From Bacteroidota bacterium (lineage in GTDB: Bacteria > Bacteroidota > Bacteroidia > AKYH767-A > 2013-40CM-41-45): DNA of 64,000 nucleotides. Location: assembly GCA_016721305.1 (NCBI GenBank), contig JADKIH010000002.1, forward strand, positions 1,828 to 65,827, read 5' to 3'. This document shows, in pieces, positions 1 through 44,420 of the stretch (the stretch's first letter is position 1; the number at the start of each line of letters is the position of its first letter). The notes below the pieces were generated by a model, which saw nothing but the letters and a program-made list of their open reading frames with translations, did not search any database and was not told where the DNA came from. A program made the translations under genes and the position numbers.

Positions 1-1868
1 ATGATCGGCCACCGATTCGCTTTGCTCAGCCTGAAGAGCTGTGACACTGAATTCGCCACTCTGTGAGTACGCTTTGTCTCCGACTTTCACTGTTGCCTTG
101 TACTTGTAATCACCGGCCGGCATGTAACCTGCGTTGAGCGTATATGCTTTATCTGTCTTCGAAAATGTATACGGGAAATTCTTGTTCTTCGAATTCGTTA
201 TCGTCACAGCGACATCCGGTGTGTTGATGAGCTCAAAATTGTCGTTGTAAACTTCCGCATCGAAGTTTACTGTTTCATTTTCATCGAACGCCGATTTATT
301 CGTAATCCTGAAATGCGATTTGTTTTCGCGAACACTTAGATTCTGAACCGTTTTAATGCCCAGCTATTAAACACATCGAAATTTTCATTCGTGCTGTAGT
401 CGCTCAATCGCCACTTCCAGATTCCTTCACCACACAATACTCCGATTCGTTGAGTAGAATTCTGATTGAATGCCTGCAACGGTTGATCTGTCGACACACT
501 TCCGATTTGCTGCTGCAGCAATATCGCATTGTTCGCAGTCGAACGGAATTGTCCGAACGGAGTAAGCAAAGCCGGGAAGGTCGGTAAATTCTGGCTTGTA
601 GCCTGATCAATGGTGAAGAGCGAAAAATCGTTATTCACTTTCGCCTGCACCGAATTCGATTTATCAATATTTCCCGTAATTGAAATTCCGGTCTCCAGCT
701 TGTTGAACAATGAAGTGCTCACCTGAGTTCCCAGAATATACCAGACAGGAATGTTGGCAGTTTTGATTCGATCGATCAAATCCGTCATCGGATGTTGAGT
801 AGAGGGAATATTATGGAAGATGATCAGATTATTTTCATTCAGCGTTCCGACTTCCTGATCGGCTGTAATCACTTTCACCGAGTAATTCTGACTGCTTTCA
901 ATAGCCAGTTTCAAAGCTCCTAAATCGGGATGCGGTGCATTGCCGATCACTAAAATTTTCTGCTTGCTTTCTATCACTTCGACAAAAACATCGCGCTCGT
1001 TGTTGATCGTCGTCATTTCTCCTGAAATAGCAGAAAGTTGAATTTTGTAATGAATGATTCCGCCTTTCTTTGCATCGAGAATAACAGGCACGAGCTGATC
1101 AAATTTGTTTCCGGATATTTTTATCTCCTTCGAAAATACGAGTGAGGAATCTTGTCTTACGGTTAATATAGTCGTTGCCCCGCTCGACTGACGAGCATCG
1201 ACATGAACTTCTATTGGAAAGCTATTACCCAGATAAACCGTCTTATTGTAATTCAATCCTGAAATGAGCAAATCCTTTTGAACCGTAGTATCACCCAGAG
1301 CGATCGTGTACACAGGCACCTTACCGGCAGTTTCACGATAAAGCGGGCTGCTTCCGCGATTGTAAATTCCATCCGTCGCGATTACATAGGCACCGACATT
1401 GCGGTTTGCATAACGATTATCTGACTCATCGAAGAAGGATGAGAAATCAGTTTCTTTATCTGTAAATGAATAGTTGATTTCGTCTTTAACCTTATCACCC
1501 CAGCTCACCGGTTTCACATCATACTTTTCCTTCAGAGCCGACATCATTTTGTCGAGCGCTTGACGATAAGAAGTGCGGTACTGAGCCGAATCTTTATTTT
1601 GAACAATACTCTCCGAATTATCCTGAGCGATAATCAGCAATGGTTTTTCTTTCTCTCTCGTAAATGTTCGAATCAAAGGCGTCAACAGCAGCAAGCAAAG
1701 GAAGAATACCAAAGCCGACCGCAAGACAAAAAGCAAGCGACGAAGCCACCGGTGTACGCCATCAAACGAATGGTCGTTCCGATACAATACGAATCCCGCA
1801 GCCAATCCTGCAAGCAAGCAAACAAAAACCCACCACGTAGGTAATTCAGTCAGAAATTGGAAGTTCAT
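1..1868 (-). CDS. Large membrane-anchored protein with two N-terminal TM helices followed by a vWA-like segment ('LLIIAQDNSESI'). It runs past the window start and is broken by a -1 indel near 351-354
   Basis: Track ORF 336..1868 has two N-terminal TM helices. The reverse translation of 1..335 stays open in another frame (KTVQNLSVRENKSHFRITNK...GDYKYKATVKVGDK). One extra T in the run at 351-354 joins the two frames. Confidence 0.5.
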
Positions 1869-1884
1869 AGGTTGGTGGCGAAGG

Positions 1885-2330
1885 TAGTGAATTTGGTAGT
1901 AAGTAGTAAGTTGGAATTCGTAAGTAGTAAGTAGTAAGTTGTAAGTTGACTTATTGTTAGGACTGTAGTTTTCTAGTTTGAGTAGGCTTATATGGAATTG
2001 CCGACAGATAAGGCTAAATGGACATTAAAAGCAGAAAACGACTTTGAATAATAATTGTTTTATTCTTATCAATAGACAAGGAAACATCCTCATTATGTGC
2101 AGATTATCGTTAACAGGCCGCAAATTGAAGAGTCATATTTAATCTCGAGTGAACATCTACTTTCATGCTTGATTCAATTTTACTATCTGAATATCAAAAG
2201 AAGAATGCACAATTTATGAACATAGTGCTTTAACGCTTAATAAAACGACGGTGGCTAAATACCTCAAGTCAACTTACTACTTACAACTTACTACTTACTA
2301 CCAAATTACTACCAAATTCCTACCTTCGCC
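1885..2330. repeat. Inverted-repeat (MITE-like) element. Arms of about 70 bp built from GTAAGTW heptamers (1885-1952 and 2265-2330) flank a 310-bp AT-rich spacer
   Basis: Left arm cgaaggtagtgaatttggtagtaagtagtaagttg... and right arm ...cttactacttactaccaaattactaccaaattcctaccttcg are near-perfect reverse complements. The element ends about 8 bp upstream of rnpB. Confidence 0.55.
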
Positions 2331-2337
2331 CCATCGC

Positions 2338-2704
2338 TGGCGTTCTATCGCCTCTTTGCAAGACAAGGGGAGGAAAGTCCGGGCAACATAGCGCATCCTG
2401 CTTCCTAACGGGAAGGGTTCTCTTCGGAGAATACAGCAAGTGCCACAGAAAATAACTGCCGGCTTCGGTCGGTCAAGGTGAAAACGTGAGGTAAGAGCTC
2501 ACGGCAGCAGGTAGTAATGCAGGCTGCGGGTAAACCTCAGGAGTTGAAAAACCAAATAAGTCATGGATTAAGGGTTGCGCGCCCAAGTTCACCTGTGATG
2601 CCATGATGGGTAGGTTGATTGAGGTGACGTGCGAACGTCATCCCAGATAAATGATAGAAGTCTCTTCGGAGAAACAGAACCCGGCTTATAACCGGCGATA
2701 CGAA
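2338..2704 (+). ncRNA. rnpB: RNase P RNA, bacterial type A
   Basis: Universal P4 motif GGAGGAAAGTCCGGGC is present. Conserved GGTGAAAACGTGAGGTAAGAGCTCAC and ACAGAACCCGGCTTA blocks are present. A P1 helix pairs 2343-2352 with 2694-2704. Confidence 0.9.
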
Positions 2705-2707
2705 ATT

Positions 2708-2740
2708 CGCCTCTCGCTTTGCGGGGGGCGTTTTTTTTTA
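2708..2740 (+). terminator. Rho-independent terminator of rnpB
   Basis: GC-rich hairpin cgcctctcgctttgcggggggcg followed by T9. Confidence 0.6.
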
Positions 2741-2962
2741 TTGAAGATTGAATATTGAATAGTTTGAAGAAAGCAGATTTTAAACTCAAAACAACCAAAA
2801 TTGGGTTTAAAAAGCGTGCACAATCTTCAATTTTCAATCTTCAATCATCAATAGCAACCTTAACACAATTTAATATCATTTATTCCGCTTTTCGTTGCTT
2901 AACTCAAAGTGTTTACTGTACTTTTGCACCCGCAAATCGATTACAACTCAATTACCTGTTTT

Positions 2963-5361
2963 ATGCATCTTCGTTATCATCAGAATTTCGTAAAAAATTC
3001 TGCACTTTTCTTCGTTCTCCTACTGCTTTACTTTCCTTCTTTCGCCAAAAAAGCACTCACACCGTCAGCGGCTACGTTATCGAAAAAGCGACCGGTGAAT
3101 CACTTCTTGGGGCTAATGTGTATTTGAAAGAAAATCTGAAAGGAACCACCACAAATCAGTATGGCTTCTACTCTATCACTGTTCCTGATGGAGATTATAC
3201 TCTCGTCGTTGCGTATTTGGGATTCATTTCTCAGGAAGTACCGATTACTCTTAAGACGGTAGATATCACTAAGAGCTTTAGCCTTGAAAGCGCTTCTATC
3301 GAAACGAAGGAAGTAACTATCAATGGCGAAAAAGAAGATCGGAATGTTCAAAGCGCCGAAATGGGCCGACAAAAATTATCGGTGGAAAAAATCAAAACGC
3401 TTCCGGCCTTTTTAGGTGAAGTTGATATCCTCAAAACAATTCAATTACTTCCCGGCGTCTCTTCAGCCGGTGAAGGTAACAGCGGTTTCTATGTTCGAGG
3501 CGGTGGTCCTGATCAAAATCTGATTCTCCTCGACGAGGCCAATGTTTATAACGCAGCTCACCTCTTCGGCTTCTTTTCTGTCTTTAATGCTGATGCCGTA
3601 CAAAACATCACTCTCACCAAAGGCAATATGCCGGCAAATTACGGCGGACGTCTTTCGTCGGTGCTCGACATTCAAATGAAAGAAGGAAACAATCAGCGCT
3701 TCGGTGTACAGGGTGGAATCGGCTTCGTATCGTCACGACTCACAATCGAAGGCCCGATCAAAAAAGACACCAGCTCGTTTATCGTTTCTGCCCGCAGAAC
3801 GTTCATCGATCTTTTCATGGGAAAACCTTTCGTCAGCAGCTCATCGAATTTCAATGGGAACAAATACTACTTCTACGATTTGAATGCAAAGGTTAACTAC
3901 CGTTTGAGCGATAAAGATCGTCTCTTCCTGAGTGGTTACTTCGGACGTGATGTATTCCGTTTTAAAAGCTCAAACTCTGATTTTACCGTCAATATTCCGT
4001 GGGGAAATGCAACAGCAACGGCTCGCTGGAATCACCTATTCCACAATCAGCTTTTCCTGAACACGTCTCTGATCTTTACAAACTACGATTTCTCATTCGA
4101 AGGCGGACAGGAAGAATTCAGCTTCAAACTCTTTTCAGGAATAAAAGACTACAACGTTAAAACTGACTTCACTTGGTTGCCTAATACGCAGCACACAGTG
4201 AAGTTTGGAATGAATTACATCTATCACGTCTTCATACCCAATAATGCCAGCGCACGCAGCGGTGATGTGAATTTCAATCTGGGTGATATCGTTCGTCAGT
4301 ATGCTCACGATGGCGCTGTTTATTTGAACGACAATTTTGAAATCAACGATAAATGGTTGCTCGATGGCGGCGTTCGTCTAACCTTATTCGATCAGGTTGG
4401 TCCGTTCGATCGATTTGTAAACGATCCGATCACCAACACTCCTACCGATACAATTCACTACGATGCCGGTCAAAGCGTGAAAGCTTACTTTCATGTGGAG
4501 CCTCGTTTTGCTGCCAGATATTCCATCAATCACGTTTCTTCTTTGAAGGCTTCTTACTCGCAGAACTATCAATACATTCACCTTGCTTCTTTGTCAGGAA
4601 TTTCTTTGCCTACAGATACCTGGGTACCTTCGTCTGATCGTGTTAAGCCTCAATTCGGAACTCAATACGCTCTGGGCTATTTCCGCAATTTGAAAATGAA
4701 TATGTACGAAACTTCAGTCGAGGTTTATTACAAAGAGATGAAAGACCAGATTGAATACCAGGAAGGTTTTCTTCCGGAAAATCAGGTCAACGGTAATCTC
4801 GACAACTTCTTCGTATTCGGAAAAGGTTGGAGCTATGGAGCAGAATTCTTTTTCAAGAAAGCAAAAGGCGATCTCACCGGCTGGGTGGGTTACACAATAG
4901 CCTGGACTAAACGTCAATTTGCTGATTTGAATCTTGGAAATACTTTTTATCCGAAATATGATCGTCGACACGATATCTCCGTTGTATTAACATACGATCT
5001 CAACGCACGATGGACATTCGGGGCAACATGGGTTTATGCCACGGGAAATCTCAACACCTTCCCTGAACGAATTTATCTGATGAGTAACGGTGATATCGTT
5101 GAAGATTACGGTGGACAAAGAAACAATTACCGTCTGCCAGCTTATCATCGAATGGACGTTAGCGCGACATACAAAATCAAAAAACACAAACGATTCGAAT
5201 CAAGCTGGAATTTCAGCATATTTAATGTGTACAATCGTTACAATCCATACATCATTTACTTCGACACAGCCTATGACCCGAACGGAAAGATCACGATTCA
5301 GGCTAAGCAAATTTCTCTTTTCCCTTTGATCCCAAGTGTCACTTACAATTTCAAATTCTAG
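2963..5361 (+). CDS. TonB-dependent outer-membrane receptor with a carboxypeptidase-D regulatory-like N-terminal domain and a plug. It carries a -1 frame break in the A6 run at 3047-3052
   Basis: A Sec signal peptide (MHLRYHQNFVKNSALFFVLLLLYFPSFA, ATG 2963) lies in one frame. The mature protein (KSTHTVSGYVIEKATGE..., plug, C-terminal aromatic TYNFKF) lies in the frame of track ORF 2755..5361. Reading A7 instead of A6 joins them. Confidence 0.8.
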
Positions 5362-8446: not shown

Positions 8447-10244
8447 CTAATATTGCCCACCCACCACTCTTTCATTAAGTGGATTTCCATCTTGAAACCT
8501 TGGCAACTTATTTGGCACAGAAGTAATATCCACCGTATCCGTCAAACTTTGCAAAAACGATATCAACTCAAATTTCTCTGTTGAAGTAAGATGCAATGAA
8601 TCTTCCGACAAAGTTTGAAACGGCACGTCGTATCCTAATCCTATACCTCCTCCGTCGTTGTAAAACTCAATGACTTCATCAAGTGTCCTGAACACGCCAT
8701 TGTGCATGTACGGACCTGTGATGGCCACATTACGCAAAGTCGGTGTTTTAAATGCATGTCGGAAAATATCGACGCCAATAACATTGTAACGTCCTAAATC
8801 GTCGTCCAACTCGCGTGGATTCGTAAGCTTAGCCGATGGTGTGCCGACGATCTCCCATTCTGTTTCCACATACTCCGGCGGCACAGCGCTATTGAAGAGC
8901 GGAATGAAATGGCAGGAAGCACAAGCGGCTTTTCCCATATACAAATTAAAGCCATTGATTTCATCCTGATTCATCACAAACTCCCGACCGCTAATCGTCT
9001 TATCGAACCGCGAATTCATTCCGATCAGTGTTCGCTCGTATTCCGCGATGGCTTGCAAAATAGATCTGTTCGTTATTTGTGTATCCTCCGTTCCGAAATA
9101 AGCTTCGCGAAAAAGCTTCTTATACTCTTCCGAATTCTTGAGCTTTACGGCTACGGCGGAGAAATCGTTATGCATTTCGAGCGGATTGCTCATCACCTGT
9201 CCGGCCTGATCTTCGAATGTAAATGATCGTCCGTCGTGAAATAATTTTCGTTGTAAAACAGAATTCACCAGCGTTGGTGCATTGCGCTTCAAAAATTTTC
9301 CGGGCTCGAACGACTGGCTCAATGGTAAACCATCGGTAAATGCCTTCCCAGGCTGGTGGCACGACGAGCACGCACGGAGATTGTTCGCCGATAAAGCAGG
9401 ATCGAAAAACAAAACCTGTCCAAGCTCCGCTACGGCACGATCATTCCGATTAGTCTTTCCGGGAACAAAATAATGCGAGTTAAACGCATGCGCATCGAAG
9501 ATCGAGCGTACCTGAAGATTGATGGCCATCAAACCATAATCGTTCGACTCCTTTACAACAGAATTTCGGGTATAACCTAACTGTCCGCTAAGCTCGTTAT
9601 AATACTGCGTATAGTATTCGAAGTAATTTGCATCACCTTTCACATTGCGCAGATAAGCAACGGAACGATCGAGCAAACGATAAATATCGTTTAGCTGCAT
9701 AAGCGCATCGCCTTCCGGATTCGGATACATGGCCAGCAGCATATCTTTCATCCCCTGCAGAACGGCCGCCGATTCTCTCACACCATTCTTGCTATCCGGC
9801 GTTTCTGCATTGGCAAAGCCCAGCATAAACTGACGAATGAGCTCGTATTGAAAAGCCTCCCAGATATGATTTTCCCGCATCTCCAGATTACCGAATGACT
9901 CAGGCATCCGATCTACAAGGAGAAAAACATTATCGACTACATTTTTTAATACCTTCCGCTTAAACTCCAGACTGTCGCCATACAAAATCTGCTCTGCATA
10001 TTGTAAACCTTCCAAAGGCACAAGCGGCGTTATCTCATCGTCTTCCTCAATCGAAGGCACGGCAGCACGGTTAATCCTGCGCGCATTCCCCCCACTGCAG
10101 CCGCAAAGAATCACTCTCCACCGCAAGCGCAAACTTCAATCCTACCACAGGCCTACTCTCATCCGCCGGTCGAAAAGCCATGACAGCAAGCACAACAACC
10201 CAAACGATTAATACAAAAGGAATACTTTTCTTAAGTCTACTCAT
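8447..10244 (-). CDS. Di-haem cytochrome c peroxidase (CCP/MauG family) with an N-terminal extension. It is broken by a +1 indel in the C6/G6 run at 10088-10093
   Basis: Two CxxCH motifs (CSSCHQPG, CASCHFIP) are present. A signal peptide MSRLKKSIPFVLIVWVVVLAVMA (ATG 10244) is in the adjacent frame. G5 instead of G6 fuses it to track ORF 8447..10132. Confidence 0.8.
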
Positions 10245-12356: not shown

Positions 12357-13387
12357 TTACTGTTTATTAATTTGATCAAAGAATTGACAATAGTTGTATA
12401 CCGCGGCCTTAAGATGCTTCTGTTTGCTTAAACGCTTTAGGTACTTTTGAAGATTTTGAACTTGCAAATCGACAGATTCAAAATCCTTCATTTCAATACG
12501 ATTCATAATGATTAGTATCCTACGGCAAATATTCCACCCTCTTTGTCCTTCTCTATTTCTTTTTGTTCTTCTAGTTTGTCTAAAGACAACTGAAATCTCC
12601 TTGACAAAAATCACACATGCGAGTAAAAATTAAATTTGCTAATTAGCAAATCTGCACTCAAAAATGACTTTGACTTTGAATCAAGCGTGATATACTTCTC
12701 AGATTCATCATACCTTTGCATATAGAATAGAGAATAGAAAATAGTCTCATCAACCATCTTTAATGTTAAAGGTAATTTCGTAAAATAACTTTTACTTTCC
12801 TCACTTAACTTGATGCTCCTCTCAAACTCCCTTAACAAAATCGCGTTATTTGCAAGATTAATTAAAACAGAACCAATTCTGTTTTCTGTATATTGAAAGA
12901 TTCGTCTCCAGTAAATCTCTTATCTCTTCAAAATAGTAATTTGACTTTTGTAATCCCTAGCTATTTGAGCTTTCTCTGCAAGAAAGGTAAATAAATAATA
13001 TCTAAGAATTGCCGAATTGAAATTTCGAGTCTGCCTTTTTAATTCAGAAATCGCTGAACTTAAATCCTCTTTGTAAGAATTTGAATCACTTGACAAACTA
13101 ATTCTATTCGTAATTTCATTGAAAATATTCTGACTATGATTTATTGCCATCCAACACTTCTCAGTAGTATCTATTTCTGAATTAATCTTCCTGAGCATTT
13201 TTACTGAAGCGGCTCCTGATATGAGTCGCCTTTTTGAATACAAAGAATGCAACAGCACATCATACACCTCAATTTTTTTAGCTTTCTTTATTACAGAGTC
13301 ATGAATACCTATCACCTCTTGCCTCAGGCCTTTTAATTGAAGTATATCTGCCTGAATAAGCATTTTTCTCAATTCGAAAACCTGCAC
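12357..13387 (-). CDS. Hypothetical protein or proteins. Three abutting minus-strand ORFs (155, 75 and 85 aa) may be one indel-fragmented gene
   Basis: ORFs 12920..13387, 12611..12838 and 12357..12614 are head-to-tail with overlapping ends. Translations are AT-rich and of low complexity. No family was recognised. Confidence 0.2.
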
Positions 13388-15297: not shown

Positions 15298-15520
15298 CTT
15301 TTGCAACCCGCAACCCGCAACTGCGCAACTCGCACCCACCTGGCAACTCGCAACTCGCAACCCGCAACCCAACCCCCCCACCCGCAACTTCTGTGAGGAA
15401 GTGAGTGGAAGTGGCTGAGGAGTGGAAGTTTGAAGTCCTTCGCCCGCAACCCCAACTCGCAACCCACAACCCGCACCCGTAACTCGTAACTCGCAACTCG
15501 CAACCCGCAACCCGCAACCC
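15298..15520. repeat. GC-rich heptamer tandem repeats (GCAACCC/GCAACTC) in two blocks around a GGAAGTG-repeat core
   Basis: 15298-15392 and 15444-15520 carry cgcaacccgcaactcgcaac repeats. Inverted copies are at 19473-19630 and 28320-28378. Track ORFs here (15247..15768-, 15279..15533-, 15293..15517-) are repeat artefacts. Confidence 0.7.
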
Positions 15521-15531
15521 GTCGGCTGAGC

Positions 15532-16353
15532 ATGTCGAAGCCCGATTTTTTCCCTACCTTCGCCCCCGAAATGATTTCGAAAGTAAAACCGGCAGTAAAA
15601 GAGGCAGGCGAATGGTTTGAAACCTGGTTCGACTCGCCTTATTACCATATTCTTTACAAAGAACGTGATCAGGATGAAGCGGAAGCTTTCCTCGATGCGC
15701 TCATCGCTTATCTTAAACCGGCCGATCATAGTCGTATTCTCGATGTGGCTTGCGGAAAAGGTCGCCACTCGATTTACCTGAACGAAAAAGGATTCGACGT
15801 TACGGGATTCGATCTCTCCGAAGAGAGCATTTTACACAATAAGGATTTCGAAAACGATACTCTGCATTTCTATCTGCATGATATGCGCGAAGTGTTTCGC
15901 GCTAATTACTTCGATATCGTAATGAATCTCTTCTCGAGCTTCGGTTACTTCCGAACGGAACGCGATAATATCCGCTGTCTGATCGCCCACTCTTCAGCTC
16001 TTAAAAAAGAAGGCATATTTGTATTCGATTATTTCAACTCGGAGAAAATTCTTGCCGGCGGTAACAGCAATTTCACCAAGACGGTCGACGGTATCGATTT
16101 TCATATCACGAAGACGATCGTCGGAAAAGAAATTATCAAGGAAATCGAATTCACTGACAACGGCCAAGCCTATCACTTCGAAGAACGAGTAAAACTATAT
16201 AGCCGCGCCGATCTGGAAAAATACTTCCTCAGCGCCGGCTTGAATATCACAAATGCATTCGGAAATTATGCACTAGAAGAATTCGACAGCAAAAATTCCG
16301 ACCGACTTATTTTAGTTGCACGTAAAAAACCCGTCGTACATGCCGCTAATTAG
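15532..16353 (+). CDS. Class I SAM-dependent methyltransferase
   Basis: Motif I ILDVACGKGRHSIYLNEKGFDVTGFDLSEESI. Intact ORF. Confidence 0.8.
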   Translation: MSKPDFFPTFAPEMISKVKPAVKEAGEWFETWFDSPYYHILYKERDQDEAEAFLDALIAYLKPADHSRILDVACGKGRHSIYLNEKGFDVTGFDLSEESILHNKDFENDTLHFYLHDMREVFRANYFDIVMNLFSSFGYFRTERDNIRCLIAHSSALKKEGIFVFDYFNSEKILAGGNSNFTKTVDGIDFHITKTIVGKEIIKEIEFTDNGQAYHFEERVKLYSRADLEKYFLSAGLNITNAFGNYALEEFDSKNSDRLILVARKKPVVHAAN

Positions 16354-17056: not shown

Positions 17057-17061
17057 CTTTT

Positions 17062-17104
17062 AGTAAGTAGTAAGTTGACTTACTGCTTACTACTTACTAC
17101 TAAA
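17062..17104. repeat. GTAAGTW-family hairpin acting as a bidirectional terminator between convergent genes
   Basis: tagtaagtagtaagttgacttactgcttactacttactacta forms a 14-bp imperfect stem with a ttgac loop. It lies between ZIP (+) and the peroxiredoxin (-). Confidence 0.5.
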
Positions 17105-17776: not shown

Positions 17777-18404
17777 ATGGCATTAGTAGGTAAAAAAGCT
17801 CCTTCATTCAAGGCTAAAGCAGTGGTATTGGGCGATCAATTCGTGAACGATTTTTCGCTCGATCAATACATCGGAAAAAACATGTGGTGTTTTTCTTTTA
17901 TCCGAAAGATTTCACTTTTGTGTGTCCGACTGAATTACATGCATTCCAGGAAAAACTGGGTGAATTCGAAAAAGAAATGTAGCTGTCGTAGCATGTTCTA
18001 CTGACACCGAACAATCACACTGGGGATGGCTCCAGATGCCGAAAAAACATGGTGGTATTCAGGGCATCACTTATCCGGTTGTTGCTGATACAACGAAAAC
18101 AATTTCTATCAACTACGGCGTATTGTCAGGCGACTATCAATACAACGAAGAAGGTGAACTTGTTGCTACAGGACCAATGATTGCTTTCCGCGGATTGTTC
18201 CTCATCGACAAAGACGGAAAAGTTCGTCACGAACTCATCAACGATTTCCCATTAGGTCGTAACGTCGACGAAGCTCTCCGTATGGTAGACGCTTTACAAT
18301 TCTTCGAAGAAAACGGCGAAGTATGTCCTGCCAACTGGACAAAAGGTGGCGAGGGTATGAAAGAATCGCATACGGCGGTGGCTGATTATATGGCGAAGAA
18401 ATAA
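17777..18404 (+). CDS. ahpC: Alkyl hydroperoxide reductase C (typical 2-Cys peroxiredoxin), split into three frames by two missing As in A-homopolymers
   Basis: N-terminus [23 protein letters not shown]...YIGK. Reading A7 at 17875-17880 gives [31 protein letters not shown]. Reading A6 at 17969-17973 gives [28 protein letters not shown]..., which continues into track ORF 18036..18404. Confidence 0.85.
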
Positions 18405-18693
18405 ATTAGCTAATTAGCTGATTAGATAATTAGCTAATGTCGGTAGGATTCAGCTTACTTGTTGTACAAGTTGTTGACGTTTAGTTTGACACAGAATCAA
18501 CTACCTTATTGGGCAAACAGTTGACTTGTTGGACTACGTAACATTAGCTGAATAACCAATGTCGGTAGGATTCAGCTTACTTGTTGTACAAGTTGTTGAC
18601 GTGTAGTTTGGCACAGAATCAACTCCCTTATTGGGCAAACAGTTGACTTGTTGATCGACGCAAAATTAGCTAATTAGCTCATCAGCTAATTAG
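18405..18693. repeat. Intergenic repeat block: two direct repeats of about 96 bp (period 122 bp) flanked by TAATTAGC heptamer/palindrome tracts
   Basis: Unit 1 at 18437-18531 and unit 2 at 18559-18652 are about 95% identical (atgtcggtaggattcagcttacttgttgtacaagttgttgacgt...). The flanks are aattagctaattagc repeats. It lies between convergent ahpC and mazG. Confidence 0.7.
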
Positions 18694-19467
18694 CTAATTT
18701 TTTTTCGCCTCATTCCAATAAACATCCATCTCCGCCAACGTCATATCCGATAAATTTTTTCCAAGTTTGCGGGCGGCTTCTTCGAGGTATTGAAAACGGT
18801 AAATAAATTTTTTATTGGTGCGCTCTAATGCTTCTTCGGCATTGATGTTTTTGAACCTTGCATAATTGATTAAACTAAAAAGCACATCTCCGAATTCAGA
18901 CTCCATATGCTTTTGATCATTGTTGTCGGATGCTTCTTTAAATTCCGCAATCTCTTCCTGCACTTTCTCCCAAACCTGATGCGGTTCTTCCCAGTCGAAA
19001 CCGACACCTCTCGCCTTCTCCTGAATGCGCATGGCTTTAATCATTGCCGGCAACGACTTAGGAACTCCGCCTAACACAGACTTATTTCCTTCTTTCAGTT
19101 TCAACTGCTCCCAATTGCGTTTTACATCTTCTTCGTTCTGCACTTTTACGTCGCCGTAAATATGGGGATGACGATAAATCAGTTTCTCACACTGTGCATT
19201 TATTACATCAGCAATATCAAATGCCTTCTTCTCCGATGCAATCTTTGCATAGAAAACTAAATGCAACATAATGTCGCCGAGTTCTTTTTTGATTTCCGGC
19301 AGATCGTTTTCAATAATACTGTCGGTTAACTCAAATGTCTCTTCGATTGTCAAATGACGTAGACTTTCCATCGTCTGCTTCATATCCCAAGGACATTGCG
19401 CACGCAATTCGTCCATAATCGTTGCGAGTCGTTCGAAGGCTTGGGCTCTGGGGGAAATTTGTGTCAT
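18694..19467 (-). CDS. mazG: Nucleoside triphosphate pyrophosphohydrolase MazG
   Basis: MTQISPRAQAFERLATIMDELRAQCPWDMKQTMESLRHLTIEETFEL and the tandem EE..E motifs. The track ORF start at 19533 runs into upstream repeats, so ATG 19467 is the likely start. Confidence 0.85.
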   Translation of the reverse strand: MTQISPRAQAFERLATIMDELRAQCPWDMKQTMESLRHLTIEETFELTDSIIENDLPEIKKELGDIMLHLVFYAKIASEKKAFDIADVINAQCEKLIYRHPHIYGDVKVQNEEDVKRNWEQLKLKEGNKSVLGGVPKSLPAMIKAMRIQEKARGVGFDWEEPHQVWEKVQEEIAEFKEASDNNDQKHMESEFGDVLFSLINYARFKNINAEEALERTNKKFIYRFQYLEEAARKLGKNLSDMTLAEMDVYWNEAKKN

Positions 19468-19472
19468 GGTGG

Positions 19473-19630
19473 TGGGTTGCGAGTTGCGGGTTACGAGTTG
19501 CGGGTTGCGGGTTGCGAATCTGTTCACTCCCACTGTTACTCAAACTCGCACTACGGGTTGCGGGTTACGGGTTACGAGTTGCGGGTTTACGGGTTACGAG
19601 TTGCGGGTTACGAGTTGCGGGTTGCGGCCG
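19473..19630. repeat. GC-rich heptamer tandem repeats (GGGTTGC/GAGTTGC), inverted copy of the 15298-15520 family
   Basis: gttgcgggttacgagttgcgggttgcgggttgcg... sits in the divergent mazG/SRPBCC promoter region. Track ORFs 19396..19692, 19422..19664 and 19466..19681 are repeat artefacts. Confidence 0.7.
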
Positions 19631-29750: not shown

Positions 29751-29768
29751 TGGGGGCTTGCTGAGATA

Positions 29769-29837
29769 GAAATTAGGAATTAGGAATTAGGAATTAGAAT
29801 TAGAAATTAGAAATTAGTAATTAGTAATTAGTAATTG
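29769..29837. repeat. Tandem AATTAGN heptamer array (about 10 units)
   Basis: aattaggaattaggaattaggaattagaattagaaattagaaattagtaattagtaattagtaatt. Confidence 0.7.
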
Positions 29838-29840
29838 GAA

Positions 29841-30413
29841 ATGACAGGATTTAGAATAATTTTGATTTGGGTAATGAGTTTTGTTTTATTTTCGGGCTTT
29901 GTTGCTGATGATTTTTATTCGGTACAGTTGAAGGACGTAAAGGGTGTATATCATAAATTAAATGAATATAAAGGATCGGAAGGAACGGCTGTTGTGTTTT
30001 TATTGGCTGACTGTCCGGCATCCCAGTATTACTCGCTGACGTTAAATCAACTTTCTCAAAAATACATTTCCAAAAAGATTCAACTAATTGGAGTTTTTGC
30101 CGGGAAGTACACGAAAGCAACTGAAGTCGCAAAATTTGTGAAAGATTATAAAATCAATTTTCCTGTTCTCACAGATAAAGAAATGATTCTTGCAGGAAAA
30201 CTAAAAGCGACAACGGCTCCTGAGGTTTTCCTTCTCGATAAAAATGCAAACGTTGTCTATTCAGGAAGAATCGACGATACATATTATGCTCCGGGAAGGA
30301 AGAAAAGTAATACGGCCGTTCATGATTTACAAAATGCCATGGAAGCGTGCCTTAAGGGAAAAACTCCTTCCGTTTCCAAAACAAAAGCTATAGGCTGCAT
30401 TCTCGAATACTAA
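29841..30413 (+). CDS. Thioredoxin-fold (redoxin/TlpA-AhpC-like) protein with a single-Cys motif
   Basis: Signal or TM segment, then VVFLLADCPASQYY in thioredoxin-fold topology. Probably the first gene of a three-gene operon. Confidence 0.5.
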   Translation: MTGFRIILIWVMSFVLFSGFVADDFYSVQLKDVKGVYHKLNEYKGSEGTAVVFLLADCPASQYYSLTLNQLSQKYISKKIQLIGVFAGKYTKATEVAKFVKDYKINFPVLTDKEMILAGKLKATTAPEVFLLDKNANVVYSGRIDDTYYAPGRKKSNTAVHDLQNAMEACLKGKTPSVSKTKAIGCILEY

Positions 30414-32251: not shown

Positions 32252-32352
32252 GTAAGTTGTAAGTTGTAAGTTGTAAGTTGTAAGTTGTAAGTTGTAAGTT
32301 GGTAATTAGCTCTAAGTTAAGTCTACTTACTACTTACAACTTACTACTTACC
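32251..32352. repeat. GTAAGTT x7 array plus its inverted partner, forming a long hairpin between convergent genes
   Basis: agtaagttgtaagttg...(x7) then ggtaattagctctaagttaagtct then acttactacttacaacttactacttacc. Confidence 0.7.
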
Positions 32353-42152: not shown

Positions 42153-43636
42153 ATGTCCGAAGCCTTAAAAGACACCCAAAAAGTGAATCACAAAGACAAG
42201 TATGAAAATGAGCTTGCTGACTGGATTCAGCAGGAGAAAGCTGCAATTGCTCTAATCCACGTTGCAGGTAGTATGTGGTTTGACAAATCGGTTGAGATTG
42301 TGCTCTTCCGAAATCAACTTGTTGACCGTAGCGCAAGTGAGATCCTGAATCTCCATCAATACTCTAAACAAGTTGTCAAGAAACCGATAAACGTTATCGA
42401 AACTCTTGCGCTTGCAAAAGAGATGAATAAGATTGAACTCGCTCCTTCTCGTATCGACATCGGAGTACTTTGCTCCGAGTGGATTCAGGAACGCAAGAAT
42501 TATAAGAACGCCGAGGAATTTATCGGCAACAAACTCCGCGATTTTATCGGTAAAGAAAAACGTGTGATGGTTCCGAAAGATGTAGTACTCTACGGTTTCG
42601 GTCGTATCGGTCGTTTGCTTATGCGCGAATTGGTAACTCAAGCCGGTAAAGGCGAACAGTTACGTCTGCGTGCAGTAGTAACACGAAACAACAGCGACGA
42701 AGACATCATGAAACGTGGCGATCTTTTACGTAACGACTCAGTTCACGGTGCATTCCCCGGAACAGTGATCGAAGATTTTGAACATAAAGCCCTAATCGTA
42801 AACGGACATTCTGTTCAAATGATTGCATCAAACGATCCTTCAACGATCGATTATACAGCTTATGGCATTCATGATGCAATTGTGATCGACAACACGGGTG
42901 TCGTTCGTGATCGCGAAGGTTTGAGCAAGCACTTGAAATCAAAAGGTGTCAGCAAAGTACTTCTTACCGCTCCGGGAAAAGGTGATGTTCCAAATGTTGT
43001 TTATGGTGTTAATGAAAGCGCCTTTGATCATACTAAGGAAACTGTATTCTCAGCTGCCTCTTGTACGACGAATGCAATCGTCCCGGTATTATCTGTGATC
43101 GAAAGCACTCTCGGCATTGAACGTGGACATATCGAAACTATTCACTCCTACACGAACGATCAGAATTTGCTCGATAACTATCATGCAAAATATCGTCGTG
43201 GTCGCTCAGCGGCTCTCAATATGGTTATCACTGAAACCGGTGCAGATAAGGCTGTAGCGAAAGTTATCCCTCATCTTGCAGGTAAATTAACCGGTAATGC
43301 CGTGCGTGTCCCAACTCCTGATGTATCTCTGGCTATCCTTAATCTCACCGTTAAAAAGAGACAAGCAAAGACGGCGTAAACGAAATTCTTCGTAATGCTT
43401 CTTTACAAGGTGATCTCGTTGAACAAATCCAATACTCCGTATCAAATGAATTGGTATCGACGGATCTTGTAGGCAACTCCTGCGCCTCTATCGTCGACAG
43501 CCCTGCAACAATCGTATCAAAAGACAATAAGTCGATGGTACTTTATGTGTGGTATGATAACGAGTACGGATACAGTCGTCAGGTAATTCGTTATGCGAAG
43601 TATTTGGCGGATGTGATTCGGTTGAGATACTATTAA
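42153..43636 (+). CDS. gap: Glyceraldehyde-3-phosphate dehydrogenase, long form with a roughly 130-aa N-terminal extension. One missing A in the A5 run at 43353-43357
   Basis: VVLYGFGRIGR (NAD site), catalytic SAASCTTNAIVP, C-terminal WYDNEYGYS. Reading A6 gives ...LTVKKETSKDGVNEILRNASLQGDLVEQIQYSVSNELVSTDLVGN..., which continues into track ORF 43451..43636. Confidence 0.8.
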
Positions 43637-43639
43637 AAA

Positions 43640-43722
43640 GGTAAGTTGTAAGTAGTAAGTAGTAAGTTGACTTGCTGTAGAAAGAGTAAGTCAACTTACT
43701 ACTTACTACTTACTACTTACCA
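43640..43722. repeat. GTAAGTW-family perfect long hairpin (bidirectional terminator) between convergent gap and a lipoprotein gene
   Basis: ggtaagttgtaagtagtaagtagtaagttgactt...aagtcaacttactacttactacttactacttacc. Confidence 0.7.
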
Positions 43723-43724
43723 TT

Positions 43725-44420
43725 TCAAAATCTCCCATACCCCACCACTCTCATCTTATAATCCAGACCTTTGACGACGATTCCGTTTTTCTTTCCGAGA
43801 TCTTTTCGTTCTTTATAAATAAGGCCTATTCCTGAGGCGTATTTTTCATTTCCGTAAATTGTTTCTACGTAATTGTTTTCGTCGATTTGTATGACGCTTA
43901 GTGTCGAATCGAAGGAGTTTCCGTTTATGACATCGGACTCATGAAAATATTCGTAGAATGCATCCTCTTCCGAGAGAGTATTGGCATCGTTCACATTCCA
44001 AGTAATGGTTTCGCTAATCGGAAATGACAACTTATGGTATGTTACGTTATCCTCAGTCCGGTAAGCACTGCTCGATGACAAGTATTGCGACCAGACATTC
44101 GAAAGTGCCCAATTTTGCAGTGTGTCATTTCTCCGGTAGCGCAAGACAATCTGATTGATTCGTCCCTGCAAGTCAGAGTAAGAGCTGTCGATCACATCCC
44201 TTACGAAGAAGTGGTATGAATAAACTGAATCATCGTTGTTATTATCGTTCTCGGCATGATAAACAGAATCGACTTCATAATCGACGTACCTTCCTTTTTC
44301 GGTTGGGAAGTAGTTCATGGAAGGAGTCTGAGGCGCCACCGTTTCCTTTTTGCAGGAAACAGTGAAGACGGCCAAAAAAAGCAGGCTGATATAACAAAGT
44401 CTTTGGTTGATTCGGAACAT
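43725..44420 (-). CDS. Hypothetical lipoprotein
   Basis: Lipobox LFLAVFTVSC, 231 aa, intact ORF. No family recognised. Confidence 0.45.
   Translation of the reverse strand: MFRINQRLCYISLLFLAVFTVSCKKETVAPQTPSMNYFPTEKGRYVDYEVDSVYHAENDNNNDDSVYSYHFFVRDVIDSSYSDLQGRINQIVLRYRRNDTLQNWALSNVWSQYLSSSSAYRTEDNVTYHKLSFPISETITWNVNDANTLSEEDAFYEYFHESDVINGNSFDSTLSVIQIDENNYVETIYGNEKYASGIGLIYKERKDLGKKNGIVVKGLDYKMRVVGYGRF

Follow-up and report, generated by a model that had tools for sequence, protein, structure and literature searches.

A supposed mobile element upstream of rnpB in an uncultured Bacteroidota lineage is probably a known kind of bacterial repeat and not a transposon

Is a segment with long inverted arms, lying directly upstream of the gene for RNase P RNA (rnpB), a mobile element? 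The question is raised by positions 1885 to 2330 of a 64,000-nucleotide (nt) stretch of contig JADKIH010000002.1, here called the window, from an uncultured Bacteroidota lineage that is known from metagenome-assembled genomes alone. An earlier note on this DNA had read the segment as a transposable element of the miniature inverted-repeat type (MITE) or, failing that, as a very long hairpin in the promoter region of rnpB. We found that the supposed jumping element is probably a known kind of bacterial repeat and not a transposon. In the reading that we favor, the segment 1877-2330 is the entire promoter region of two divergent genes and is not one element but a composite of three unrelated things: the divergent promoters, simple-sequence arrays, and an orphan filler. 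We give this reading a probability of about 0.65. Our searches of the source genome covered the window, positions 1-64,000.

The segment spans the whole 463-nt intergenic region between rnpB (Rfam RF00010, 231.8 bits), which the earlier note had recognized correctly, and a divergent gene for a conserved membrane protein (Table 1). The long inverted arms around an AT-rich noncoding spacer of about 310 bp are also real; inverted complementarity extends over 1877-1952 on the left and 2266-2330 on the right, and the spacer between the arms is 313 bp long with 33% GC. A repeat search found one block of 36 nt (1890-1925/2272-2307, 92% complementary) and one of 33 nt (1920-1952/2266-2298, 94% complementary). 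To call the arms near-perfect was generous, however, for the gapped alignment of the full arms has 65 matches in 80 columns and four indels. Folding of the 463-nt region as single-stranded DNA (ssDNA), which had been proposed as a check, gave -74 kcal/mol compared with -39.5 ± 3.9 kcal/mol for shuffled sequences (z = -8.9).

The claim that the arms are built of GTAAGTW heptamers is correct for 1896-1946 and 2272-2301, where Tandem Repeats Finder (TRF) reported 7.3 and 4.3 units. Both arrays thus consist of at least three head-to-tail 7-nt units, as do the bacterial long simple sequence repeats (LSSRs) and the short tandemly repeated repetitive (STRR) sequences. The claim does not hold for the outer parts of the arms, which consist of an 11-mer repeat (CTACCAAATTN / TTACTACCAAA, 2.7 copies at 2295-2324 by TRF) and an 11-nt block, CTACCTTCGCC, at the outermost tip of each arm. 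The inverted repeat stops at 2330, which is 1 to 2 nt ahead of the 5' end of rnpB and not about 8 bp as had been stated.

Table 1. Coordinates of the features discussed, in window positions
Feature	Position	Strand	Remarks
Conserved membrane-protein gene, without Pfam domain	1-1868	-	ATG at 1868; 696 amino acids (aa) in relatives
Predicted sigma-A -7 box TACCTTCG of the divergent gene	1879-1886	-	Within outer block GGCGAAGGTAG, 1877-1887; predicted transcription start site (TSS) ~1874
Left arm	1888-1952	+	One 11-mer copy (reverse complement CTACCAAATTC) 1888-1899; GTAAGTW array 1896-1946; inner stem 1945-1952
Left-arm heptamer array	1896-1946	+	7.3 units, broken up by TTGGAATTC
Left-arm inner stem GTTGACTT	1945-1952	+	
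Unique AT-rich spacer	1953-2265		313 nt, 32.9% GC
Right arm	2266-2320	+	Inner stem; WACTTAC array 2272-2301 (4.3 units); 11-mer repeat 2295-2324
Right-arm inner stem AAGTCAAC	2266-2273	+	
Predicted sigma-A -7 box TACCTTCG of rnpB	2321-2328	+	Within outer block CTACCTTCGCC, 2320-2330; predicted TSS ~2333
rnpB, bacterial RNase P RNA class A	2332-2704	+	Rfam RF00010
Intrinsic terminator of rnpB	2708-2740	+	10-bp GC-rich stem and T9
TTGAAKA array family	2739 and 2821		TRF; directly after rnpB terminator
Second mirror pair, TTGAAKA (TTGAAGA/TTGAATA) and its reverse complement	2739-2852		52-59 nt apart; starts on last T of rnpB terminator
ATAGAGA array family	12720		TRF
GCAACCC/GGGTTGC array family	15303, 15443, 19476, 19552, 28323		TRF
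Short GTAAGTW hairpin	17061-17101		Between convergent genes
AATTAGCT array family	18404 and 18664		TRF
CACTAAGA array family	20197		TRF
TAGGAAT array family	29767		TRF
GTAAGTW mirror pair	32252-32351		21 nt apart; fills convergent region from stop codon to stop codon
GTAAGTW hairpin, same inner stem GTTGACTT/AAGTCAAC	43633-43728		8-14-nt loop; between convergent genes

By their sequence and position, the outermost 11 bp of each arm are predicted to be Bacteroidetes sigma-A -7 boxes, that is, the host promoters of rnpB and of the divergent gene. The -7 box lies at -12 to -5 in mapped Bacteroidetes promoters (PMC9723704), and its consensus is given also in PMC7366714. Between 1800 and 2400 the only boxes of the TAnnTTTG or TTCG type are the two TACCTTCG copies inside the CTACCTTCGCC blocks. 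Both transcription starts were predicted from the position of the consensus box: the start predicted for rnpB, about 2333, coincides with the mature 5' end of the RNA, and that predicted for the divergent gene, about 1874, leaves a 6-nt leader ahead of the ATG. In the window, TAnnTTTG is enriched in noncoding DNA (23 of 45 boxes fall in the 23% outside our crude map of open reading frames [ORFs]), and at 150 nt or less upstream of start codons there were 11 sense boxes versus 1 antisense box. Because the genes are divergent, their two -7 boxes are mutually inverted, and these TAnnTTTG-type boxes would form the tips of the arms.

Six orthologous loci were recovered from relatives (L001 to L005 and L046); in each, rnpB lies beside the same gene, and the protein encoded by that gene is 60-72% identical to the one in the window. 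The box directly before rnpB has the form TA..TT(T/C)(G/A), of which TA..TT is invariant in 7 of 7 orthologous loci (alignment A1). Likewise, the box of the divergent gene, 10-12 nt ahead of the ATG, has an unchanging TA.CTT in 7 of 7 (alignment A2). Both boxes are also present where arrays are lacking at this locus, in L004, L005, and L046.

These boxes bear on an alternative that the earlier note mentioned, a structured leader: rnpB would be transcribed from far upstream as a precursor, later processed, in which the arms pair over a long distance as an RNA helix. The strong pairing of the arms (z = -8.9 as ssDNA) is in its favor. However, both predicted starts lie downstream of the arms, which argues against transcription of the arms as a hairpin or leader. 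At all seven loci the conserved -7 box directly precedes the mature 5' end of rnpB, the spacer has no -7 box and only a background level of sigma-70-like sites, RNA folded from the spacer is no more stable than shuffled sequences (z = +2.4 and +0.5), and the relatives have no equivalent leader. A comparison of the spacer with Rfam gave only a chance-level match to snoR21 (E = 4.2). The arm pair also does not look like an intrinsic terminator, having a 313-nt loop, no T-tract, and a place upstream of both predicted starts. We consider a transcribed leader extremely unlikely. The description of the segment as a very long hairpin in the rnpB promoter region is apt insofar as the right arm ends in the predicted -7 box of rnpB, but the arms are outside the predicted transcripts.

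The closest relative, L001 (GCA_046330055.1; adjacent protein 72% identical), has the same divergent arrangement of the gene and rnpB, but its intergenic region is 143 nt versus 463 nt in the window. The flanks of the two regions align: each has the promoter box followed by mirrored arrays, which in L001 are AGTAAGT/AGTAATT. Only about 33-48 nt separate the arrays in L001, and the 313-bp spacer has no counterpart. Thus, as judged from the aligned sequences, the mirrored pair upstream of rnpB is older than the split between the genome of the window and the nearest relative that has been sequenced. This is the behavior of the inverted pairs described in Xanthomonas, which are arrays on opposite strands with a layout that is kept between species.

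In L002 and L003, rnpB points the other way and has the same promoter block, CCTACCTTCGCCCC; farther upstream of rnpB there is a mirror pair of another heptamer, AAGGTCA/TGACCTT, with 95-125 nt between its members. These two loci are 97.2% identical, and their rnpB-upstream arrays differ by one 7-nt unit (GTATAAA) plus substitutions; copy number therefore changes by whole units between close strains, as in LSSRs and STRR sequences. The orthologous sites in L001 to L003 indicate that the arrays are long-lived residents, that they change by whole units, and that they exist independently of the 313-bp core. This pattern is the opposite of what insertion of a MITE predicts.

Several side observations concern the same loci. 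Compared with its placement in the other five orthologous loci, rnpB has the reverse orientation to both neighbors in the window and L001. Between rnpB and the 696-aa gene, L002 to L005 and L046 have a conserved gene for a 97-aa membrane protein that is missing from the window and from the L001 locus. In L001, positions 9242-9328 and the surrounding ~270 bp are a tandem duplication of the rnpB 3' end, the terminator, and the GAATTCT heptamer array that follows. The divergent gene in the window is a 510-aa ORF at 336-1868 that continues in another frame to position 1; its homologue P0002 (696 aa) aligns with 1868-351 and then, in the other frame, with 357-1. The frameshift near 351-357 is either a sign of a pseudogene or an assembly indel.

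Could the segment 1885-2330 nonetheless be a non-autonomous transposable element that was inserted upstream of rnpB and whose terminal inverted repeats are built of heptamers? Its architecture, long inverted arms with no ORF between them, is that of a MITE; the arm family is dispersed at five loci in 64 kb; and a metagenome contig, L171 (43% GC), has the same architecture. At positions 4123-4449 of L171, (GTAAGTA)3(GTAGGTA)4 and its exact mirror, with the unit variants in the same order, bracket about 240 nt of other short tandem repeats. The L171 arrays are at the edges of the intergenic region between two large co-directional genes, and the layout matches that of the arm pair upstream of rnpB, but the spacer is unrelated. 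The other arm pairs likewise enclose sequences unrelated to one another, from 8 to 240 nt long, and array pairs of unrelated heptamers show the same layout. Although the arms are inverted, as MITE termini would be, their tips are, as predicted above, host promoter boxes kept in relatives that have no arrays at the locus, and the remainder is a low-complexity array.

Further checks, among them those that the earlier note had proposed, also gave little comfort to a MITE. We found no target-site duplication: the flanks TTCATAGGTTGGT and CCATCGCTGG share no direct repeat, no direct repeats flank either the arms or the spacer, and the flanks of the heptamer cores are inverted, not direct, relative to each other. 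No transposase was noticed in the window, and a specific search there for an IS110 homologue found none. The spacer was single copy wherever it was searched for. The best other match in the window had an E value of 2.4, and blastn searches found only short, chance-level matches in 57 related loci (best E = 0.068 over 27 nt), nothing at E ≤ 0.1 in 120 metagenome contigs with the arm motif, and no match at E ≤ 0.01 among plasmids and phages. An exact 22-mer from the spacer had 0 matches in a collection of metagenome contigs, and the arm plus inner-stem motif GTAAGTWGTAAGTTGACTT had 0 matches in a collection of genome contigs that does not include the source genome. Finally, no empty site was encountered: the L001 orthologous site has both arms and lacks only the core, and no site without arms was found among the loci of the array-rich clade that we examined. 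A MITE is highly improbable.

In our favored reading the arms are arrays, and arrays are common in this DNA. There were 30 matches to GTAAGTWGTAAGT in the window where 0.07 were expected, and these fell at five loci (1896/2272, 17061, 20250, 32252, and 43641). In all, the window has at least six families of 7- to 8-nt repeats (Table 1). Almost all array bases (893 of 900 bp) are noncoding, although only 22% of the window is; if the 13 array-bearing regions are taken as independent, the probability of this intergenic bias is ~3e-9. Many arrays, above chance expectation and mostly intergenic, are typical also of LSSRs and STRR sequences. The 13 regions are among 43 intergenic regions; in them an array often begins right at a stop codon or extends precisely to a start codon or promoter box. 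Seven of the 13 contain mirror pairs and two contain direct pairs; the rest are single or heterologous. Array density per 10 kb was 3.0 in the window and 1.8-3.2 in L001 to L003; of the 54 other related loci, most had a low density or no arrays at all. That the arrays are an assembly artifact was considered and rejected, because independent contigs from other assemblies (L003 and L171) contain the same kind of array.

To obtain a background value for mirror pairing, we used metagenome matches of three consecutive GTAAGTW units, of which 4 of 120 had an opposite-strand partner within 1.5 kb. Mirror pairing is thus a property of the lineage and not of the repeat unit. Arrays were found in 5 of 7 convergent regions versus 8 of 36 other regions (Fisher P = 0.019). 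As RNA, the convergent ends fold into hairpins of -57.4, -36.8, and -19.5 kcal/mol, with z scores of -3.4 to -11.5. The mirror pair that follows the rnpB terminator (2739-2852) folds as RNA with -36.4 kcal/mol (z of -7). At the equivalent place L001 has GAATTCT arrays.

Some of the other arrays have features of their own. The array of about 11 TAGGAAT/TAGAAAT units at 29767-29840 reaches the start codon at 29841, and in this it resembles the start-codon-proximal TAACTGA arrays of the Beggiatoaceae. The GC-rich GCAACCC / GGGTTGC arrays at 15303-15521 and 19476-19627, with up to 11.6 units, form direct and not mirror pairs; downstream of the first pair, at 15554, the CTACCTTCGCC promoter block occurs a third time, and the second pair starts 8 nt from a start codon. 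At 12711-12744, a consensus -7 box, TACCTTTG, is followed within ~1 nt by the ATAGAGA heptamer array, after which there is no + strand ORF of at least 90 aa for ~1.4 kb; the array could be the 5' end of a small RNA or of a short ORF.

The arrays might be regulatory, either as heptamer and 11-mer sites for a lineage-specific DNA-binding protein or as a slippage rheostat for the divergent promoters. Their symmetric location, about -13 to -90 of both promoters, is consistent with this, as are the whole-unit length variation between the rnpB-upstream arrays of L002 and L003 and the retention of the pair at the rnpB site in two species. However, arrays of many unrelated units are found in intergenic regions of every kind, whether convergent or co-directional, and directly against start or stop codons; the same promoters are without arrays in L004, L005, and L046; and rnpB, as a housekeeping gene, does not obviously call for phase variation. 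The 11-mer CTACCAAATT, which we considered as a genome-wide operator, was rejected as such because in the window it is confined to the locus upstream of rnpB. A regulatory role of this kind is very unlikely.

With 32.9% GC the spacer is more AT rich than the window (41.6%) and the crude noncoding fraction (38.3%), and it is best described as orphan AT-rich filler that is specific to the window. We rejected several candidates for its identity. Sigma-70-type promoters are at background level in the spacer, with 3 found versus 2.3 expected. Its small ORFs (32, 32, and 40 aa, all with non-ATG starts) lack a Pfam match and are not preceded by a -7 box. When the spacer was considered as a degenerate copy of the gene for the 97-aa membrane protein, the best tblastn match covered 23 aa (E = 0.27, target of 600 nt) and was on the wrong strand. 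As a relic of an IS110 noncoding end or bridge RNA, the spacer has no similarity to the insertion sequence (IS) in L002 described below, neither sequence has an Rfam match, and there is no excess structure.

The origin of the spacer is the only point on which a further explanation differs from ours, with which it otherwise partly overlaps. In that explanation a GTAAGTW hairpin, either resident or similar to the repetitive extragenic palindromic (REP) sequences, received foreign or mobile DNA in its loop, and the 313 bp are the decayed remains. Consistent with this, the inner stem GTTGACTT/AAGTCAAC recurs in the hairpin at 43633-43728, which has a loop of only 8-14 nt and looks like an "empty" paralogue of the arm pair upstream of rnpB, and the orthologous arrays in L001 have only ~33-48 nt between them. 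In L171 and at 18399-18704 in the window, mirror arrays surround inserts of 226-240 nt. There is also a precedent. In L003 an octamer-array hairpin is intact at 1210-1260, with the inner palindrome TCCCGATAGCTATCGGGA, whereas in the 97%-identical L002 a 1.45-kb IS110-family element (3215-4673) sits at the center of the hairpin, CACAAGAG.../...CTTGTGTT. The element encodes a 322-aa DEDD_Tnp_IS110 transposase and has a noncoding end of ~420 nt and an 11-nt terminal inverted repeat, TTCACAAGGAG. L002 and L003 show that array hairpins can be invaded and that the result is inverted arrays around a long insert; such hairpins may be preferred targets of IS110 elements.

Against this explanation, the spacer has no terminal repeats, target duplication, ORF, or similarity to the L002 element or to anything else searched, and there is no IS110 transposase within the window. 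In addition, an insertion here and a deletion in L001 are equally possible, and the direction of the change is not polarized because the outgroups have different gene orders. We therefore regard decay of inserted DNA as possible but unlikely. The insert at 18399-18704 has further features: its two AATTAGCT octamer arrays, the unit of which is self-complementary, abut the stop codons of convergent genes and enclose 1.9 copies of a 122-bp tandem unit with 92% identity, and this unit includes GTTGACTT, the inner-stem 8-mer of the GTAAGTW hairpins.

A broader version of these ideas is that the mirror-image heptamer arrays are a functional intergenic system throughout the lineage. Their hairpins would end or protect convergent transcripts without U-tracts, insulate divergent promoters such as that of rnpB, and serve as favored landing pads for IS110-type elements guided by bridge RNAs; the 313-bp spacer would be a relic of such an insertion. 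We consider this distinctly unlikely.

The composite that we favor would have arisen as follows. Outside either transcript, at about -13 to -90 of each promoter, the GTAAGTW arrays and the local 11-mer would have been born and resized in place by replication slippage, making up the arms proper. In this lineage, arrays of several 7- to 8-nt families appear to occupy roughly one intergenic region in three, about half of the arrays being mirror pairs, and the arms would be one instance of this. The symmetry of the pairs is probably kept by intrastrand (hairpin-templated) repair or by template switching. The 313 bp would be filler in what would otherwise be the loop of a hairpin, either inserted here or deleted in L001. 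Between convergent genes, the pairs would be transcribed into very stable RNA hairpins with a plausible role in termination or in protection of 3' ends. At the rnpB site, in contrast, the pair would be untranscribed and most likely has no dedicated role beyond spacing the two promoters.

Five points weigh against this account. Slippage alone fails to explain mirror pairing, and the mechanism that keeps the symmetry is one that we infer. The inner stem GTTGACTT occurs at three loci, and the pair GTTGACTT/AAGTCAAC is identical at 1945/2266 and 43666/43688, which hints at a dispersed hairpin unit and not at purely local growth. The two promoter blocks are identical at 11 of 11 positions, which is more than a shared consensus requires. 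Since the transcription starts were placed by the consensus, the assignment of the promoters is itself a prediction. Lastly, the source genome was searched over 64 kb, part of a contig of 449,914 bp, and copies of the spacer may exist elsewhere in it.

The closest described system is that of the GGGAATC heptamer arrays of Xanthomonas, which are mostly intergenic and include 70-75 inverted pairs per genome; related species usually share the repeat type, single or inverted pair, but differ in length and sequence (Rehm et al. 2015, PMC4692102). As in Xanthomonas, the arrays described here are tandem intergenic heptamers with close opposite-strand pairs, and what is kept and what varies between the window and L001, and between L002 and L003, follows the same rule. 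The differences are that GTAAGTW is A/T-rich, that there are several unrelated families of units, that the host is an uncultured member of the Bacteroidota, and that 313 bp separate the two arrays of the rnpB-site pair, which adjoins two promoter boxes. As read from its sequence, GTAAGTW has no G-tract, in contrast to the G-rich units associated with G-quadruplexes and i-motifs; being A/T-rich and without G-tracts, it has no potential to form a G-quadruplex.

Heptamers are the commonest unit of long simple sequence repeats (SSRs) in bacteria, as Mrazek 2007 is cited in PMC4679880 and PMC4692102. TAACTGA arrays have been reported in the Beggiatoaceae, in Cyanobacteria, and in five Bacteroidetes (MacGregor 2015, PMC4679880), and the same paper describes the cyanobacterial STRR heptamer arrays and notes other heptamer arrays in Bacteroidetes intergenic regions. 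The arrays in the window resemble the LSSR, STRR, and TAACTGA arrays in being intergenic, often beside start or stop codons, sporadic in phylogeny, and variable in copy number. Unlike those arrays, which are mainly direct and in one orientation (BOGUAY has one inverted set), about half of ours are mirror pairs, and the sequences of the units are unrelated.

Other repeats are less similar. The Correia elements of Neisseria are MITEs whose ends can supply promoter elements. REP sequences and bacterial interspersed mosaic elements (BIMEs) are dispersed intergenic palindromes of enterobacteria and pseudomonads that form RNA hairpins and are frequent at convergent 3' ends; REPs are fixed imperfect palindromes of 20-40 nt and are known landing sites for IS110-family elements. 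A MITE of Porphyromonas gingivalis is described in PMC4596501 as containing a minisatellite. Like MITEs, the segment upstream of rnpB has inverted arms around a short noncoding core and is intergenic and promoter proximal; unlike them, it has no target-site duplication and no conserved multicopy core, its tips are apparently ancestral host promoter boxes, and its arms are low-complexity arrays common to hairpins without a core. The palindromic, intergenic arrays at convergent 3' ends, and the IS110 insertion into an array hairpin in L002, recall REPs and BIMEs. However, the units in the window are tandem heptamer arrays of variable length, and the only REP-like trait is the inner stem GTTGACTT at three loci.

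A last comparison is with hmw1A and hmw2A of Haemophilus influenzae, in which, according to PMC8262952 and PMC12721329, a heptamer SSR between promoter and coding sequence demonstrably grades the expression of a surface adhesin. In both cases 7-nt tandem repeats lie in a promoter or leader region and their number can change by slippage. In contrast to the hmw repeats, the arrays at the rnpB site are upstream of a -7 box that is predicted to serve a housekeeping RNA gene.

We saw no sign of a new mechanism acting on the expression of RNase P RNA. What the locus does show is that palindromic "elements" in array-rich genomes can be composites of promoters and arrays, and that calling a MITE needs more than architecture. 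Mirror-paired heptamer arrays are extended from Xanthomonas to an uncultured Bacteroidota lineage, in which the units are A/T-rich. Because these units cannot form G-quadruplexes, the upkeep of mirror pairs is not specific to G-quadruplex-forming sequences. A pair that persists at one orthologous promoter region across species is a defined locus at which to ask how the symmetry is kept. The IS110 insertion in the sister strain L002 is a second such locus, and it bears on whether the hairpins attract mobile DNA.

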